Source: a virus
Lineage: Duplodnaviria > Caudoviricetes
IMG/VR virus record: IMGVR_UViG_3300017722_000930
Location: 1 to 35,933 of that record
Reading direction: 5' to 3' (one strand)
DNA length: 35,933 bases
In this document: positions 124-7,132 of the stretch, piece by piece
Position numbering within the stretch: position 1 is the first letter of the stretch
Layout: each line of letters opens with the position of its first letter
The notes under the pieces: generated by a model
Told to the model about the DNA's origin: nothing
Seen by the model: only the letters and a program-made list of their open reading frames with translations
Databases searched by the model: none
Position numbers and translations under genes: made by a program

Positions 124-1521
124 AAAACGTACACCGTGCCGGAACACGTTGCTATTCGCGCTATCGACTGTGATCCCATTGTTGATGTCGCGAATCTGCG
201 TGTCACTGATATGCAAGTCGCCAGAAACCAGCCAGACGCCGTGCGTTCCGTCATTCCACAGCGCGCCGCCGACAATCGTGGTATTCACCCCGTTTTGCGT
301 TTGAATCTTGATGCCCGCCAAGGTCTGCGCTGCCACGCGCGGCGCAATGATCTGGCCGTCCTCGCAGCCACCCGCAGTTCCGTCAATCACGATACCAATG
401 GAGTTGGCGTAGGTCGTGGTACCGTCTGCCTGCGCGGCCAACAACAGATAATGGTTGCAATCCTCAATCTTTGTTCCGACATTGTAGCCGTAACTGAAGC
501 AAGCGGTAAGGGTCAGCCAGTCTGCCGTGTTTTTGAAGTGGTAGGCAGGGCCGACACGATCAGCCCAATTTGAAGGCTTTGATATAGTAGCGATTCCAGA
601 AAAGGGCCAAGCATGGCAAAAGCCAATGTGAGGATTATCCAAGCAATTCTCAATATAAACGCCCGCCTCGCAATCAAAATAGAAATAGTCCAAGCGGGGA
701 CGTTGCCAGCCAACGCTATTGAACGCTTGGTCGAATCCAAGCACCATGCAGTTTGTGACGCTTGCATCATCACCGCCTACCGTGAAGGCAGTTCCGGCAA
801 ACGTGGTCGAGGTAGAAGCCGGAAACGTCATACCCTTACGGTAGACCAGCAATCCGTTAATAGTTGTTCCACCTTGCAGCGTGATCGTCACCGCCGAGTT
901 AACGATAAGCGCACCACCAAGGGCGCCATAAGGCGCGTTCGCGTTGTCATCAGGCGAGCCAACAAATTGATGTGGGCCAACAAGCGAAACATTCGGCTTC
1001 ACCGTCAAAGCGGTATCGATCAGGCATTTTGCGCCGTTTGGAATAGTAACGGTGCCACCCGCTGCGCCTAGGCTGTCAATCGCCGCCTGAATCGCCGCTG
1101 TGTCATTGGTCGTGCCGTCGCCAACCGCACCAAAGTCCTTGACGCTAACGTTCTCGCGCAGCTTGTCCTGCGCCGAACGCGCTACAGCACCCACGCCTGC
1201 TTGGATAAACGCCACATTGGCAGCGTCGATGCTCACAACATTGAGATCACGAAACACGACCTCGCCGGTTGACGTTGCGATAATGAGCGAGAACTCAAGC
1301 GCCGCAGTCTGGATATTCGAAGGCGCACCGATATACACCGGATAGCCGCCGACCGTGCGGATCGGCTGCGCCCATGCGATAGTTAGCGCTTCGTCCTGGT
1401 ACACCGCGATAGGGTTTGTACGCGGATCAAGCCCTGCCGTGCCGATGTAGATTTTGCCCGCCTCAAGCGCGTTGCCTGCTGCGTCGGTGAAATAGGGATA
1501 AGGTGCGGGGATGGTGGTCAT
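1..1521 (-). CDS. P22-like tailspike, N-terminal part (head-binding domain + pectate-lyase-like beta-helix); continues across the join, about 594 aa in total
   Basis: Absent from the ORF track because it runs off the contig edge. ATG at 1521 overlaps the upstream stop (ATGA). My translation MTTIPAPYPYFTDAAGNALEAGKIYIGTAGLDPRTNPIAVY...AQPIRT resembles the P22 tailspike head-binding domain. It is followed by QDKLRENVSVKDFGAVGDGTTNDTAAIQAAIDS, the Pectate_lyase_3 start motif. It is in frame with 35547..35921. Confidence 0.9.
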   Translation of the reverse strand, partial: MTTIPAPYPYFTDAAGNALEAGKIYIGTAGLDPRTNPIAVYQDEALTIAWAQPIRTVGGYPVYIGAPSNIQTAALEFSLIIATSTGEVVFRDLNVVSIDAANVAFIQAGVGAVARSAQDKLRENVSVKDFGAVGDGTTNDTAAIQAAIDSLGAAGGTVTIPNGAKCLIDTALTVKPNVSLVGPHQFVGSPDDNANAPYGALGGALIVNSAVTITLQGGTTINGLLVYRKGMTFPASTSTTFAGTAFTVGGDDASVTNCMVLGFDQAFNSVGWQRPRLDYFYFDCEAGVYIENCLDNPHIGFCHAWPFSGIATISKPSNWADRVGPAYHFKNTADWLTLTACFSYGYNVGTKIEDCNHYLLLAAQADGTTTYANSIGIVIDGTAGGCEDGQIIAPRVAAQTLAGIKIQTQNGVNTTIVGGALWNDGTHGVWLVSGDLHISDTQIRDINNGITVDSANSNVFRHGVRFDTVTLPINAAVVTNKLYGGLDDYDLAAGNSVVGGNARNETI

Positions 1522-4289
1522 TGCGTGCGCTCCGAAGGGACAAGCGATCTAGCGATCTTCTTTTTGATCTCGTTATCCTTCACGCCCTGCCTAATCATCT
1601 TGAACCCCGTCACCAAAGGAACAGGGATAGGCGAGCCGGTTAAGTATGCGCTTAGGCCACCCGTGGCCGTCATTTCGCCCATCATCGCCATAAGCGTCCT
1701 TGCGGTGCCGCTAGTGTTAATGTTGGTGCCTGGCGGGACTGTGCTGACGTATTGGATAACGTCCCGAAGGTCGCGCAAGGTCTGCGCTTTCTTGGGATCA
1801 AATATCACATCTAGCCGACCAACATCATCCAGACTATTGATCGCATCCTTCATTTTTGCAGCCGAAACGATAGGCATATCGTCAGCCGTCATGCTGGCGT
1901 TTCTGGTCACGCTTTCCAGAAGATGGCGGACGGTAGCGCCCTCAAGTTCTTTCCATGCCTGACGACCATCTGCGCCGCTTGTGCGAAGCGTCCGACGCAA
2001 AAATTGAATTTCTTCTGGCGCAGCGTTCAAAATGGACTTTTGAAAAACCTTGTCCGCAGAGACTTTGGGGTCGTCCATGTTTTTGATGTTTGAAACAAGG
2101 CGCGCGACAACAGCCCGATCCTCAAACTTGCGGGCCTGCTCACGCCGCAGCTTTCGGGCTTGTATGTACAAATCACCGCCCTTGCCTTCAGTCGTCGCGT
2201 CAATCAGGCCCTTTAACTGCCCGCCGTAAACCTCGCCAGGTGTGCCGCGCTGTGTGTTTTGGCTGATTAGCTTGCGGATGTTTTCCATAGTCGCAACACT
2301 GATTTGCCCGGTCTTGTCGGGGTCATTTTTGGCGAGCTGTTGCGCAACGCTTTTCAGAACTGGCGCAATCTCTTTTGTCGCCTCATCCTGCGCGTTGATG
2401 AACTGCTGAACATCAGCATAGTCTACAAGTTCTTGCGCTTCGGGCGCTTGTTCCGCACGCTTGTAGGCAACGTTGACCTTGTTTTTTGCAGCGTCATAGG
2501 ACTTTGTGAGCGCGTCAATCACGACGTTGCCGGTGCTGGTTCTGTTTACAGTTTGCGCACCTGTTTGGTTGATAAGCTGGTCAAAGTTTTCAAGAATTTG
2601 CAAATTGTTCTCTTCAGCACGGCGGCGCAAAGGACCGCCAAGCGCCCCGAAAAGCTGCTCCTTCTCAAATGCCAGTTGCTCTGCATCGCGCGTGACTGCG
2701 CCTAATGTCAGTTCAACAGGAACCGGCAAGCCCTCCGCCTTCATGCGGCGGATTGTCTCTAGTGAAGTTCCCGACGATCCAGCGTCGTTAAATCGGAAAG
2801 TTTCCGGAACAAACGTCTCATCCGCTGCTTGCATTGCAGCTTCACCAGCCGCAGGTGCACCGCCCGCAGGAGCGCCGCCTGTAGGCATACCACCAGCAAG
2901 AGTGCCACCCATAGGCGGAACGCCGCCATCAGGCGGAACGTCGCCGCCGCGCCGAAACAACCCAGAGACAACAGGAGCCGCACGGCTAACACCGGCACCG
3001 ATGGCACGCCCGCCAAGCGAACCCGCAGCACCTAGCGCAAGGCCCGTGCCAATGTCCTCACCAGTGTTAGCAGCGTACAAGCCGCCAAAACCGCCCTCAG
3101 TAGCCAGTTCGCGAGCCACTGCGCCTGTAGTACCACCACCAGCAAGTCTTGTGGCCAAATTTGGAGCTAATGCCCTAGTCAACCCCGCCGTGGCGTTGGC
3201 AAGCCCCGCAGTGCCGACTAACGAACCGACCCCCTCACCAATCATGCCAGACAAAGGATTAAGCGCCTCTAGGCCCTGCACCTGATCGCCAGCGACCTGA
3301 GAGAGAAGGCCGACGCCTGCCGCGTTGACAGCGCCCGTAACGCCCGTGCCGAGCGGGGTTGTCAGAAACTCCCCGATGCCCTGCGCGATAGGATTGCGCG
3401 TGCCGGACTGCCGCGTGTTGAACGTGACCGGCTGACCTTTCGCGCGGGCTTCTACAGCCTGCTGGAACGCCGACACATCTTCAGCAGTGACGTTAGCGCC
3501 CGCTCCTCGCGCCGCTTCCACAAGCTGCTGCACGTTCGCGCCAGACGCGAATGCCTGATTGACCGCTGCGCTGATCGCCTTGTCAGCTTCAGTGCTGAAC
3601 CGTTCGCCGCCAGTGATGGCGAGTTGCTCCGCCCCCGGTGTGCCTTTGTCTTTCCAGTATTTATCAATCTCTGGCGCGAACTTGTCACCGAATGGCGTCT
3701 TGCCGATAACCAGTTCAGGGTTAACGCCAAACTCAGGGGCTTGCGCAGTCTCAGCATACATCTGCCGTGACACATCGTAAGCCTGTTTGCGCTGCTCTAA
3801 GATATTGCGCAGTTCAACCCGCAAGCCGTCACGGGCTTGGTCGGTAAACTTGCCATCTGACAAACGGAGTTGACGCAATACGTCTTGAGCCGCAGCAGGC
3901 AAGCGCGCATCTGTGGTGCTGATGCTCTGCATGTCGCCTGTGCCGACCGTGCTGGTTGGGTCAATGGTCTTGGCATAGTGGTAGACAAGCGACAGATCGC
4001 CCGATCCGTTGGGCTGCGTTTTCAGCGCCGCCACATAGTTAGGTAGCGCGCCTTCGTACTTCTTAACGTTCTCATCCGAACGATACCGCGATTGCAAATC
4101 TAAAGCAGCCTTGCGCACTTCCTCGCGGCCTTGGCGGGCCTCACTGGATACGTTGATGTCCGTACCTGTTTGCGCGCGAATGTCTGCCGCCATATCTTTC
4201 GGCGCGGCAGGAATGACCACACCTTGCCCCGTTGCCGGAACAGCGCCAACCACCTCGTCATCTTGGCCCCATGTTTGCGCTTCGGCCAT
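1518..4289 (-). CDS. Large internal virion / DNA ejection protein (P22 gp16-like position)
   Basis: 923 aa, Ala/Gly-rich helical protein with a central Gly-rich hydrophobic segment. Lies between the other ejection genes and the tailspike. Confidence 0.7.
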   Translation of the reverse strand: MAEAQTWGQDDEVVGAVPATGQGVVIPAAPKDMAADIRAQTGTDINVSSEARQGREEVRKAALDLQSRYRSDENVKKYEGALPNYVAALKTQPNGSGDLSLVYHYAKTIDPTSTVGTGDMQSISTTDARLPAAAQDVLRQLRLSDGKFTDQARDGLRVELRNILEQRKQAYDVSRQMYAETAQAPEFGVNPELVIGKTPFGDKFAPEIDKYWKDKGTPGAEQLAITGGERFSTEADKAISAAVNQAFASGANVQQLVEAARGAGANVTAEDVSAFQQAVEARAKGQPVTFNTRQSGTRNPIAQGIGEFLTTPLGTGVTGAVNAAGVGLLSQVAGDQVQGLEALNPLSGMIGEGVGSLVGTAGLANATAGLTRALAPNLATRLAGGGTTGAVARELATEGGFGGLYAANTGEDIGTGLALGAAGSLGGRAIGAGVSRAAPVVSGLFRRGGDVPPDGGVPPMGGTLAGGMPTGGAPAGGAPAAGEAAMQAADETFVPETFRFNDAGSSGTSLETIRRMKAEGLPVPVELTLGAVTRDAEQLAFEKEQLFGALGGPLRRRAEENNLQILENFDQLINQTGAQTVNRTSTGNVVIDALTKSYDAAKNKVNVAYKRAEQAPEAQELVDYADVQQFINAQDEATKEIAPVLKSVAQQLAKNDPDKTGQISVATMENIRKLISQNTQRGTPGEVYGGQLKGLIDATTEGKGGDLYIQARKLRREQARKFEDRAVVARLVSNIKNMDDPKVSADKVFQKSILNAAPEEIQFLRRTLRTSGADGRQAWKELEGATVRHLLESVTRNASMTADDMPIVSAAKMKDAINSLDDVGRLDVIFDPKKAQTLRDLRDVIQYVSTVPPGTNINTSGTARTLMAMMGEMTATGGLSAYLTGSPIPVPLVTGFKMIRQGVKDNEIKKKIARSLVPSERTQ

Positions 4290-4292
4290 GCC

Positions 4293-4640
4293 TTAATTCC
4301 TTAACGCGCGCATGTTGCGCATCACATAATTGCGAGTTTCAGCGGGGACTTTTGACAGCCAACCGTTGCCATACTTTGCCAAAGCCTTATCCAACTTGCC
4401 CGGTCCCAGATTGTATGCTGCCCATGCTTTTGCAGCGTCGTTACCGTAGCGTTCCATCATGGCTGACAGGTATTCACGCCCCACACGCACATCATCGCCA
4501 GCGGTCCCCCGTGAAGGTGTTACACCGAAGCCAGGATCGCGCGAAGTGCTAGGCATGACCTGCATCAGCCCGCGCGCTCCCTTGGGGCTGATAGCGTTAG
4601 GATTACCGCTGCTTTCCGATTGAACCGTGATGGCTTCCAT
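4293..4640 (-). CDS. Lytic transglycosylase (SLT/GH23) domain; possibly expressed as a +1 frameshift extension of 4642..5484
   Basis: Motifs ESSGNPNAISPKGARGLMQVMP, AAYNLGPG and ETRNYV. The first ATG (4640) is only 8 codons before the catalytic Glu. Confidence 0.9.
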   Translation of the reverse strand: MEAITVQSESSGNPNAISPKGARGLMQVMPSTSRDPGFGVTPSRGTAGDDVRVGREYLSAMMERYGNDAAKAWAAYNLGPGKLDKALAKYGNGWLSKVPAETRNYVMRNMRALRN

Positions 4641-4641
4641 T

Positions 4642-5484
4642 TTACTGAAAGCCGCCGGTAGCGTTGCCGCTACCACCTCCCTTGCGTTTAACGCTGTTGT
4701 CACGCGAATCAAAATACTGCGTTTCCGGTGGCAAGTCGTCATATTGCTGCTTTGTGAGCGGTGATGGAAGTTTGCTGGGTTGCTGCGCGTTCGTCCCATA
4801 ACGGCGGTAATACTCCGATTGCCGACCTATAAACTTGCCTTGGTTAGGCGTTTCCATTTCGACAAGCGGGTCAATCTGGAGTTCTACAAACTGCGCAGAC
4901 TTACGAATGCCTTCTGGGCTGTTTGGATCAATTTTTGCCGCCACCAAATTCTTTTGGAAAGCTGTCAACTCAGACTTGCCGAACAGGTTTTCGTAAAGCT
5001 TGGAATCAATCGCGGCCATCTTCATGCCAAGCAGAGCTTTACCGGCTTGCGGCTCCTTGGCGATCATCTGCGCGACAGCTTCTGTTCTAGCAGCCTCATC
5101 CTCACGCCCCGGTGTTTCTTTCAAGGCCTTGATGCGCGACTGCATAAGCGCGTTCGCCTGATCGGTTGCGCCGTTTGTCAGCAGCGAAAGTGCGCGCGAG
5201 GTAAAGTCCAAGTCATCCGCTTTGGCTGCGTCGGTTAAAGGCTGGCGCGCGGCTTCGAACTGCTCCTTGTAGGCGGGATAGGCCATATAGAAGCGTGAAA
5301 TGTTCTCAGGCGTTGGGTTGTCATAGACCATCTGCATAGCGGCGCGGGCCTGCTGTGCCTCTATGGCCTTCTGCTGCGCCTGCTGCTGTGCTTGCTGTTG
5401 CGCGGCGATCTGCTGGCCGAATGCATAGGATGCTTGGAAAGCGCTTTGCGGGCTAGGGATCGTATAGTCGAACGGTTGCGCCAT
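4642..5484 (-). CDS. DNA ejection/internal virion protein (P22 gp20-like position)
   Basis: 280 aa with a Gln/Ala-rich N-terminus (MAQPFDYT...QQQAQQQ). Directly follows the gp7-like gene. Confidence 0.65.
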   Translation of the reverse strand: MAQPFDYTIPSPQSAFQASYAFGQQIAAQQQAQQQAQQKAIEAQQARAAMQMVYDNPTPENISRFYMAYPAYKEQFEAARQPLTDAAKADDLDFTSRALSLLTNGATDQANALMQSRIKALKETPGREDEAARTEAVAQMIAKEPQAGKALLGMKMAAIDSKLYENLFGKSELTAFQKNLVAAKIDPNSPEGIRKSAQFVELQIDPLVEMETPNQGKFIGRQSEYYRRYGTNAQQPSKLPSPLTKQQYDDLPPETQYFDSRDNSVKRKGGGSGNATGGFQ

Positions 5485-6320
5485 TAGAAAATCTTCCCCA
5501 GCGCGGTTTGGCCTGCGGGCGATGTGGCAAACCCTGTAATCTGCCCAAGTGCGTTATTGAACGCAGCGCCCTGGCCCAAAGCGCCGCCAGCCCGTGCCTG
5601 TCCAGCCTGCGTCAATGCGTTACCGATCTGGTTAGCGGCTTCCATGCCACCCGCGCCAACGCCTGCCGCTGACCGCTGACCTAGCGTAGTGATGCCGCCG
5701 AGGTTTTGGAACTGCTGCTGTATCTGTTGGTTCAAGAGCGCCGGTCGAAACTGGCCCAACGCGCCTTGAAGATTGCCGCCGCGAAGCCCGCCGGTTGCCG
5801 CTGCGTTTTGAAGCAGCGCATCTTCGCCTTGGCGCGCAAGAGCCTGGAACATGGGCGACTGCTCGAACTGGTTGATCGCCTGCTGCTGCCCTTGCGCGCC
5901 CCCGGTCTGAAACGCAGATAGATCACCTCCCCTCGTTTGCTGCCATTGCTGTGCGAACTGTTCTAGTGGCATACGCTGACCGCCAGGGATCATCACGTTG
6001 CGGCCCATGATGTTGACCATTTGCCCGCCGCCCTGCTGATTGTACGCCGCCATTAGTTCAGGGTTAGACTGCGCGAAGGCTGTCCAGTTGGTTCCCTGCG
6101 GCGCAATACCGAGCAAGTTCATCTGCGCTTGTAGTGCCGGAATGCCAGCGGATGAATAAGGCGCAAGAAGCGTTCTCAGTTCCTCGCGCGCCGCCCGCTG
6201 TTCTGCTGCTGCTGCGTCAGCGGCCTGTGTCTGCGCCTGCGCTGCCTTACTTGCGCTCTTGGACGCAACGACACCGCCAATAACGGCACTGCCTACAACA
6301 GCGGCTGCTACGGCTGACAT
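5484..6320 (-). CDS. P22 gp7-like DNA ejection (pilot) protein
   Basis: Hydrophobic Gly/Ala N-terminus (AAAVVGSAVIGGVVASKSASKAA), then LAPY..AG..AL and NAAATGGLRGGNLQGAL, typical of gp7-like DNA transfer proteins. Confidence 0.8.
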   Translation of the reverse strand: MSAVAAAVVGSAVIGGVVASKSASKAAQAQTQAADAAAAEQRAAREELRTLLAPYSSAGIPALQAQMNLLGIAPQGTNWTAFAQSNPELMAAYNQQGGGQMVNIMGRNVMIPGGQRMPLEQFAQQWQQTRGGDLSAFQTGGAQGQQQAINQFEQSPMFQALARQGEDALLQNAAATGGLRGGNLQGALGQFRPALLNQQIQQQFQNLGGITTLGQRSAAGVGAGGMEAANQIGNALTQAGQARAGGALGQGAAFNNALGQITGFATSPAGQTALGKIF

Positions 6321-7132
6321 TAACAGCCCCCCAATGTATCGCGGTAGTCCACGGTAATTTCCTCGCCAATCATGCCGCCCCGGCTCCCCGCAATGTCCCG
6401 CAAGGCAAACAGGTAAATGTCATTCCCCATGCGCGCCATGATGGCATTAGGAACCTTAGCATGGTTGGTATAACGGCCTGCTGGCGTCCGCATCCCATCA
6501 AGCAATGATGGGGCAATCGGCTCAAGCCGTGCAATGTCACCCGTAGCGAAAAGCCCACGGCCTTCGATCTGAGAAGGCGCAACCATCACCTTGTATTCAC
6601 CGAACGGAAACGGGCGCTGATCTGCGAGGTTTTCCGAAATGGCGCGCACTTGGTCAGGCGTGAAACCCGCCGCCGTGATGGCGTCCAAAAAGTCTTTCAC
6701 ATCTTCGGCGTGGTCGTATTCCAGCAGCGGCACAGACTTGAACGTGTCGCTAGGCTCAAACAGTTCTGCCTCAAGCTCTGCCACATCAGTCAAAGGCGTG
6801 GCGTAGATGTTCTGCCAGATCATATCCTCGTGGACGTATGCCATCTTGCGTCCAGGCGGTGCGACAAACGTCGTCGGCCCAGTCAGTTCCGTTTGACTGC
6901 CATCCTCAAGGAATATCGAAACGCGGCCAGACACAAGCGCGTTCATATGCGCATGACGGTGCGAATGCCCAATGACATAAGCGCCTGCATTCACCGCCAG
7001 TTCGCGGATGTAGATGTCCGGCCCGAAGCGATGGGTAACCGAACACGCGGCCTGATCCATGCCCAGAAAGGCACCTTCCAGCCGCTCCACATCTGCGGGC
7101 GTGTACGCTTTGGAAAGAGAAACCGCGCTCAT
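6320..7132 (-). CDS. Cupin-like domain fused to a SET-domain (lysine methyltransferase-like) protein
   Basis: N-terminus VTHRFGPDIYIREL...GHSHRHAHMNALVSG looks like a His-rich cupin. C-terminus carries SET motifs SQIEGRGLFA, RYTNHAKVPNA and GEEITVDY. Confidence 0.85.
   Translation of the reverse strand: MSAVSLSKAYTPADVERLEGAFLGMDQAACSVTHRFGPDIYIRELAVNAGAYVIGHSHRHAHMNALVSGRVSIFLEDGSQTELTGPTTFVAPPGRKMAYVHEDMIWQNIYATPLTDVAELEAELFEPSDTFKSVPLLEYDHAEDVKDFLDAITAAGFTPDQVRAISENLADQRPFPFGEYKVMVAPSQIEGRGLFATGDIARLEPIAPSLLDGMRTPAGRYTNHAKVPNAIMARMGNDIYLFALRDIAGSRGGMIGEEITVDYRDTLGGC

Follow-up and report, generated by a model that had tools for sequence, protein, structure and literature searches.

A conserved GGAGG-hairpin-UUU_Y cassette in uncultured P22-like phages and the +1 frameshift it probably programs

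The ejection block and the signal within it

The DNA analyzed here, hereafter the window, is a complete viral record of 35.9 kb (35,933 nucleotides, IMGVR_UViG_3300017722_000930) with direct terminal repeats at its ends, and it encodes coat, portal, terminase, scaffold, and head-closure genes of the P22 type. The order on its minus strand is a P22_gp7 gene, an ORF of 280 aa, a lytic transglycosylase (SLT) frame lying in +1, a gene of 923 aa, and the tailspike gene. The features of the locus are as follows:

5484..6320, minus strand: gp7-like DNA ejection gene, upstream (PF25688 P22_gp7 and phrog_598)
4642..5484, minus strand: frame-0 gene of 280 aa, putative ejection (periplasmic tunnel) protein, in the gp20 slot of P22
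4676..4680, minus strand: SD-like GGAGG, 30 nt 5' of UUU, with the frame-0 codons GGA GGN
4656..4675, minus strand: 8-bp hairpin with a GCAA loop, directly 3' of GGAGG (folding and covariation)
4651..4655, minus strand: 5-nt spacer including the E-site codon GGC
4647..4650, minus strand: predicted slip site UUU_C, where the P-site tRNA-Phe would move from UUU to UUC (conservation)
4642..4644, minus strand: frame-0 stop TAA, two codons past UUU
4638..4640, minus strand: AUG, one base 3' of the frame-0 stop, not conserved in the alignment of relatives
4632..4653, minus strand: second predicted hairpin, specific to the window, over the slip site and the AUG (folding)
4293..4649, minus strand: +1-frame SLT, 117 residues after the shift (PF01464)
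1518..4289, minus strand: 923-aa gene in the gp16 slot, 3' of the SLT frame (position)

Because this gene order is shared with RSK1 and PfAn1, cultured relatives with the same three-gene ejection block and a transglycosylase annotated in gene three, we place the 280-aa protein in the gp20 slot, between a gp7-like and a gp16-like gene of a P22-like morphogenesis module. The original prediction called the product an ejection protein, a label that its position supports, while homology in sequence or fold is limited to weak profile matches. The protein itself matches no Pfam or PHROG family, six of 80 aligned relatives match phrog_917 ("released from the phage upon host infection", best E 1.4e-5), and hhalign against the slot proteins of RSK1 and PfAn1 returns probabilities of 3% and 14%, respectively. 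Its predicted structure is helical (pLDDT 88) and gives weak Foldseek matches to named DNA-transfer proteins (E 0.03-0.09), and no PDB match was found by sequence or by fold search. On gene position and these weak profile matches, the 280-aa product is a putative ejection protein.

The gp16 slot is annotated as a transglycosylase in the related records RSK1, PfAn1, MW202867, and MW202475, from all of which the signal described here is absent. No hydrolase domain was detected in the window's 923-aa gene, which has no match in Pfam, PHROG, or our cargo HMMs. Neither a sigma-70 promoter nor a terminator was found on the coding strand of 4100-5700. Upstream of the gp7 gene, positions 6320-7132 (minus strand) encode a cupin-like N-terminal part (with a PHROG short-tail-fibre label) joined to a SET-like domain (PF00856, E 1e-5).

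The motifs named in the original prediction lie where it put them: GGAGGT at 4680-4675, the GCAA loop, TTT C at 4650-4647, TAA at 4644-4642, and an ATG at 4640. Its hairpin is also present (GGTAGCG at 4674-4668 with CGCTACC at 4663-4657), with a stem of 8 bp rather than the 7 bp proposed, since U4675 pairs with G4656; the stem therefore follows GGAGG without a gap, and 5 nt separate its end from UUU. The folding z score is -3.07 for 4641-4685 (3/200 shuffles as good) and -5.99 for 4630-4700. The SLT frame is in +1 of the 280-aa ORF and matches PF01464 (E 7e-20, 71 bits vs. a cut-off of 21.3), with its predicted catalytic Glu codon at 4616-4614. Decoding of TTTC in a single step yields GGFSKMEAITVQSES, which is open through to the SLT stop; the predicted product is 396 aa long, in agreement with the transframe form of about that size that had been proposed.

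We regard a broken gene or an assembly error as having a negligible probability. In-frame fused versions in relatives would fit such an origin, but a 1673-nt contig from run X7, a run that is not marked as the source of the record, covers 4300-5108 with 0 differences and 0 gaps, so that the junction is not an assembly slip, and the same break with the same signal recurs in 117 distinct sequences carrying three unrelated cargo families, a degree of conservation that already refutes it. In run X4, two short unrelated contigs from the same sample (records 11 and 12) match only the 34-35-nt signal (window 4647-4681); as they share the signal alone, other phages in the sample carry it. Rfam returned no family match for 4200-5600, its only hit being a chance match (E 5.7) elsewhere in that interval.

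Frame, start codons, and slip site among relatives

A search with the SLT protein yielded 107 viral loci, which were sorted by the setting of the SLT. A small stand-alone SLT behind an ORF of at least 150 codons was found in 24 of these (L042 and L028 being near-copies of others), and all 24 have the SLT in the +1 frame, as had been predicted for the downstream ORF, and carry GGAGG-hairpin-UUU_Y. The signal occurs in none of the other loci, which comprise 76 with an SLT inside longer ORFs and seven unrelated SLT genes. Among 20 aligned relatives the SLT columns E9, GLMQ, and AYN are invariant or nearly so, consistent with membership in PF01464. Relatives of the 280-aa protein show a more varied picture: L001, L003, and L007 have the same signal with an M15-like cargo instead, L009 has the signal and a cargo that runs off the contig, and L002, L005, L006, and L008 have neither signal nor cargo.

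Two further observations concern these loci. In L021, L022, L035, and L072 an in-frame SLT 57-67% identical to that of the window lies in the middle of ORFs of 690-740 codons, and these SLTs are a possible source pool for the cargo. L004 (3780-3900), a near-copy of L003, lacks the DNA between a point inside the hairpin and a point inside the M15 cargo; this deletion may have been promoted by the hairpin, or it may be a misassembly.

IMG/VR was also scanned with DNA patterns blind to protein content, namely pattern A (57 loci, stem unspecified) and pattern B (120 of about 190 loci, stem partly specified), a match being counted as hairpin-forming if it folded at -8 kcal/mol or better. Among the hairpin-forming matches of both patterns, 152/158 end a long frame-0 ORF within 1-15 codons past UUU (2-4 codons in 129) with the +1 frame open, two of the 152 being cut short by the contig end, vs. 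0/19 hairpin-less matches. The six exceptions consist of one truncated locus and five with the same cargo in frame 0. For pattern A alone the arrangement is present in 36/38 folding vs. 0/19 non-folding matches (Fisher p = 5e-14 excluding the truncated locus, for loci that are related). These counts overstate independence, as the loci are related to one another and some are duplicates (117 distinct 35-mers).

The frame-0 proteins behind the signal belong to one family (115/116 distinct), which ties the cassette to a gp20-type gene slot. Judged by sequence, the cassette is widespread in uncultured P22-like phages. A gp7-based scan, intended as a less biased sample, gave nine loci, too few to estimate the share of the clade that carries the cassette. 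Among GenBank phages, queries with the SLT, M15, gp7, and gp20-slot proteins returned distant or unrelated matches and no cultured phage with the cassette.

The signal could conceivably serve a hydrolase made as a separate small protein, through termination-reinitiation at AUG 4640 or through an SD bridged by the hairpin, and the start codons of the +1 frame bear directly on this idea. The window's TAA-A-ATG would suit it, and an SD followed by a hairpin is a known initiation layout, found in T4 genes 25 and 38. Some ATG, GTG, or TTG follows UUU in 56 of the 130 sites with a domain anchor, four anchorless sites having been left out of the count. The positions of these starts are scattered, however: ATG is absent between UUU and the anchor at 112/130 sites, all three codons are absent from that interval at 74/130, and at 13/130 none occurs anywhere upstream in the +1 frame. 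The window's own Met is not conserved, its column being Leu or Ile in 18/19 relatives, with one TTG. The absence of a conserved SLT start that the original prediction called for is thus what the relatives display, and the +1 ORF is conserved without a conserved start, as expected for a programmed +1 shift. Two further points against a separate protein are that the fixed point 3' of the SD is the frame-0 TTT-Y and not a start codon, and that in-frame fusions exist. Given the scarcity of starts at the 130 anchored sites, independent initiation is not the general route, and we consider a separate hydrolase improbable, although a small amount of initiation at AUG 4640 may occur in this genome.

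The slip site is as constant as the frame. TTT is present in 26/26 distinct protein-selected sites and is always followed by a pyrimidine (22 C, 4 T), so that the predicted conservation of TTT-C holds in the form TTT-Y. Background Phe codons are 69 TTT vs. 135 TTC, with G after TTT in 44/68; an in-frame UUU plus pyrimidine is thus conserved beyond coding need. The E-site codon is AAC in 51/123 and GGC in 39/123 distinct sites, a preference partly fixed by pattern A, and the frame-0 junction peptide follows the pattern GG-x6-(G/S)-x-F. At 116/123 sites a sense codon occupies the frame-0 A site, mostly CGC or CAA (CAG in the window), and a stop stands in the A site with UUU_U in the other 7/123. 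A rare A-site codon was sought across the 123 sites and none was found, CGC and CAA not being rare in these genes. tRNA-Phe has the anticodon GAA. A -2 slip was ruled out by reasoning, since it would require tRNA-Phe to re-pair on the RC-U codon upstream, which it cannot do.

A nascent hairpin might instead act on the polymerase and cause transcriptional slippage with deletion of one base. Hairpin-stimulated slippage of this kind exists, having been described for a Roseiflexus IS element (excerpts of PMC5009743), and the distance from the cassette stem to the end of UUUC is about one hybrid length. The sites nevertheless offer no homopolymer longer than 3-4 T, the spacer is of mixed sequence, the TTT is always in codon phase, and the SD-like motif is conserved, all of which make transcriptional slippage highly improbable in our view.

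Covariation of the hairpin and the position of GGAGG

No consensus structure emerged when all 26 sites were placed in one alignment, which mixed two stem registers, and splitting the sites by register solved the problem. Register A (39 distinct sites) spans -25 to -6 and register B (77 distinct sites) -25 to -5 or longer; the hairpin of L015 is longer than either. In register A, 312/312 cells are paired and two-sided changes occur at all eight pairs; as the set was picked for a stem in that register, the perfect pairing is partly built in, and the two-sided changes are not. The covariation score is 0.89 vs. 0.39 for shuffled and at most 0.30 for slid alignments, and the stem covariation that had been predicted is therefore present. 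The cassette thus has a stable, covarying stem a few nucleotides 5' of the shift site, as expected of an upstream-hairpin +1 stimulator. No conserved structure or stimulator was found on the 3' side, where the downstream folding z score averages 0.02 over 124 sites.

The hairpin varies in length. GGAGG lies 27 nt before UUU, with a shorter hairpin, in L381, L383, L389, L391, L399, L405, and L410, and 33 nt before it in L015. A 27-nt pattern matched 25 loci, comprising six ejection-slot cassettes, three N4-like ATPase ends, and 16 without the arrangement. What remains constant across the 27-, 30-, and 33-nt types is that GGAGG abuts the stem and that the stem ends 3-5 nt before UUU; fixed gaps with a varying hairpin length suggest that looping out of the hairpin brings the SD near the P site.

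The role of GGAGG admits a second reading, a variant of the main explanation and not an alternative to frameshifting, in which the shift is real, GGAGG is structural (pairing with RCUUUC in free mRNA or encoding Gly-Gly), and the refolding hairpin is the sole stimulator. The pairing of GGAGGU over the slip site that the original prediction raised is mostly possible, with -25:-2 paired in 96/117 and -26:-1 in 100/117 sites, and the slip site is paired in the minimum-energy fold at 86/124 sites. Because GGAGGY can also pair with RCUUUC, conservation of GGAGG need not mean SD action. The linear gap from the end of the SD to UUU is about 21-28 nt, far outside the known 3 nt, and falls to 3-5 nt only with the hairpin looped out, and hairpins alone can stimulate +1 shifting (available text of PMC3639245 and PMC6321510). 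A purely structural role is harder to reconcile with the mismatches tolerated at -1 (17/117) and -2 (21/117), with the absence of any drift to A-U pairs, which would match UUU equally well or better, and with retention of the synonymous A of GGA, codon -10 being GGA in 24/27 protein-selected loci vs. 75/697 background Gly codons. We consider it possible but rather unlikely that GGAGG is only structural.

Cargo exchange, in-frame fusions, and losses

SLT, M15-peptidase-like, and lysozyme-like domains replace one another as the +1 cargo, the distinct proteins being 88 M15-peptidase-like, 49 SLT, and eight NNPG-type. Cargo representatives match PF08291, PF01464, and phrog_873 (endolysin); the L239 type, the largest M15-like group, has no library match and was assigned by motif and BLAST. 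The cargo HMM for M15 was contaminated by mislabelled SLTs, and its cross-hits were disregarded. On a FastTree of the N-terminus of the next gene (103 rows) the cargo changes 22 times, and at least 13 SLT/M15 changes are forced by starred branches, a count that may be inflated by recombination between the two genes. In L334 (1431-2003, minus strand) the M15 domain of the +1 cargo is preceded by an additional domain of unknown family and about 100 aa.

The same cargo lies in frame 0 behind an intact signal in L214, L277, L281, L289, L365, and L398, and 7/64 protein homologs contain PF08291 or PF01464 in frame. The in-frame fusions P0061 and P0064 keep the GG-x6-G-x-F junction. The in-frame fusions demonstrate that such a product occurs naturally, and their junctions agree with the predicted one, although some of them may be assembly slips. 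P0049, P0050, P0053, P0054, and P0063 are in-frame M15 fusions with the junction GGATGNRPF, two codons shorter than the usual signal.

Close relatives without the signal and without a cargo-HMM match are L002/L412 (87-96% identical in the matched parts), L414, and the prophages L380 and L382, which indicates that the extension is accessory. The gp20-slot protein of L002/L412 and L414 has a different C-terminal third, and no hydrolase match was found in their ejection block. The C-terminus together with the cassette behaves, as far as these comparisons of sequence reach, as a swappable module.

The cassette also occurs in prophages. The frame-0 family profile matches 8/401 genomes in the family of G001, which holds the Sphingomonas record L143; of these eight, five have the cassette with an SLT or M15 cargo, two have neither signal nor cargo, and one is interrupted by a contig end. 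A profile search of genome contigs based on the SLT alignment found nothing beyond generic cellular SLTs.

Proposed mechanism and relation to known systems

The comparisons of frame, start, covariation, and TTT-Y all agree with what a +1 frameshift would predict. We conclude that the cassette very probably drives a programmed +1 frameshift that would yield the 280-aa protein and a 396-aa form with a predicted peptidoglycan hydrolase. In the proposed mechanism, when a ribosome stands at UUU the hairpin would refold in the mRNA exit path, looping out about 20 nt so that GGAGG could pair with the 16S anti-SD at an effective spacing of 3-5 nt plus the stem base. The hairpin and the SD duplex would then bias the P-site tRNA-Phe from the wobble pairing at UUU to the exact UUC. 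The minority fusion would be packaged with the other ejection proteins and would cut the cell wall during DNA delivery, its hydrolase replacing the transglycosylase that related phages have in gp16, and the shift may set the hydrolase copy number per virion. While the mRNA is untranslated, GGAGGY paired with RCUUUC could hide the SD, which would prevent free hydrolase.

A description of the cassette was not found in the literature searched, which included the available text of PMC10885494, PMC3711429, PMC8954989, PMC10386132, and PMC8579659, with supplements (e.g., GeneTack cluster tables) and most subscription papers outside it. The conserved +1 frameshift is very likely programmed, and its putative SD-plus-hairpin stimulator appears to be undescribed in that literature. 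We give about even chances to a broader reading, that the cassette represents a natural, portable class of +1 signal in which a refolding exit hairpin delivers a distant SD, no slow A-site codon is needed, and the signal acts as a socket for different wall hydrolases at a set ratio.

The N4-like roseophages provide a separate lead. The end of their gp24-like AAA ATPase gene is matched by the 27-nt pattern, and an SD-like motif and a small hairpin precede TTT-TRA there; the loci concerned are L421:787-1168, L422-L426, L428, L387, L394, and L400. The gene ends TTT-TGA or TTT-TAA in 9/10 loci examined, and in eight of those nine the +1 frame reaches a shared GKG(K/Q)SY motif, which in EE36phi1 lies in another frame; RD-1410W1-01 is without the TTT-TRA site. 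The distance from GGAGG or GGGGG to the site is 21-30 nt, and the hairpins differ more from one another than in the ejection cassette. A conserved acidic tail is encoded in the +1 frame and has been annotated either as a hypothetical gene of its own or not at all. We regard this ATPase end as a separate and weaker candidate for +1 frameshifting, though one in cultured phages, on which our literature search found no paper. If the portable-class reading is true, this layout would be an independent second use.

Were the cassette to act as proposed, it would be a natural 5' hairpin stimulating +1 shifting in bacteria, for which we otherwise found only engineered reporters in the literature, and a 35-nt test case for control of the reading frame by structure in the mRNA exit and SD pairing. 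Ready-made mutants are available in the form of over 100 natural variants, among them length variants and in-frame revertants, and the prophage copies make the cassette testable in bacteria. Our analysis also suggests that only some ejection-tunnel subunits carry the wall hydrolase, and that gene callers may miss or mis-start these enzymes clade-wide.

Among known systems, prfB (RF2) resembles the cassette in its +1 P-site slip and in the SD-like sequence upstream, and 7/123 cassette sites likewise combine UUU_U with an A-site stop. In prfB the SD lies 3 nt from CUU_UGA, and a slow stop is required (excerpts of PMC5009743 and PMC6321510). The cassette, in contrast, has a hairpin of 18-23 nt between the SD and the site, its A-site codon is usually sense, and by linear gap its SD does not stand 3 nt before the shift codon. 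The frameshift genes of the rhizobial element ICE-MlSym are msi172-msi171. The portion of PMC5009743 available describes UUU_Ynn as +1-prone in bacteria and places +1-stimulating SDs 3 nt from the site, and bacterial UUU_Y sites, that of ICE-MlSym included, share the slip tetramer of the cassette. The ICE site differs in having a conserved Trp-Gly four codons upstream, and no hairpin is mentioned for it in that portion of the source; the cassette has neither Trp-Gly at the fourth codon before UUU nor the ICE spacing.

Closest in architecture are the engineered upstream hairpins that stimulate +1 shifting (Cho 2013, PMC3639245; Huang 2018, PMC6321510; both as excerpted), which are also stable, lie a few nucleotides 5' of the shift site, and act on 80S and 70S ribosomes. 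Those hairpins derive from the SARS -1 attenuator, and hairpin and SD were tested as alternatives; the cassette is natural and has both in tandem. The effect on 70S ribosomes in vitro was seen only without RF2, that is, with a pause (PMC6321510, same excerpts), in contrast to the mostly common sense codons in the A site here, a difference that counts against the proposed frameshift.

Phages offer parallels at the level of the products. The capsid proteins of T3/T7, the capsid and tail shaft of Listeria PSA, and Lactobacillus A2 also obtain two virion proteins from one gene, with an optional, swappable C-terminal domain (available text of PMC5009743); unlike the cassette, which would join a wall hydrolase to an ejection-slot protein, those systems mostly add Ig-like domains to capsid or tail at other sites. 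In T7 gp16 and K1E/K1-5 gp35, hydrolase domains switch between ejection proteins of the gp16-like and the gp15/gp20-like type (PMC8954989), much as the cargo does here, but these fusions are in frame, and the available part of that review mentions no frameshift.
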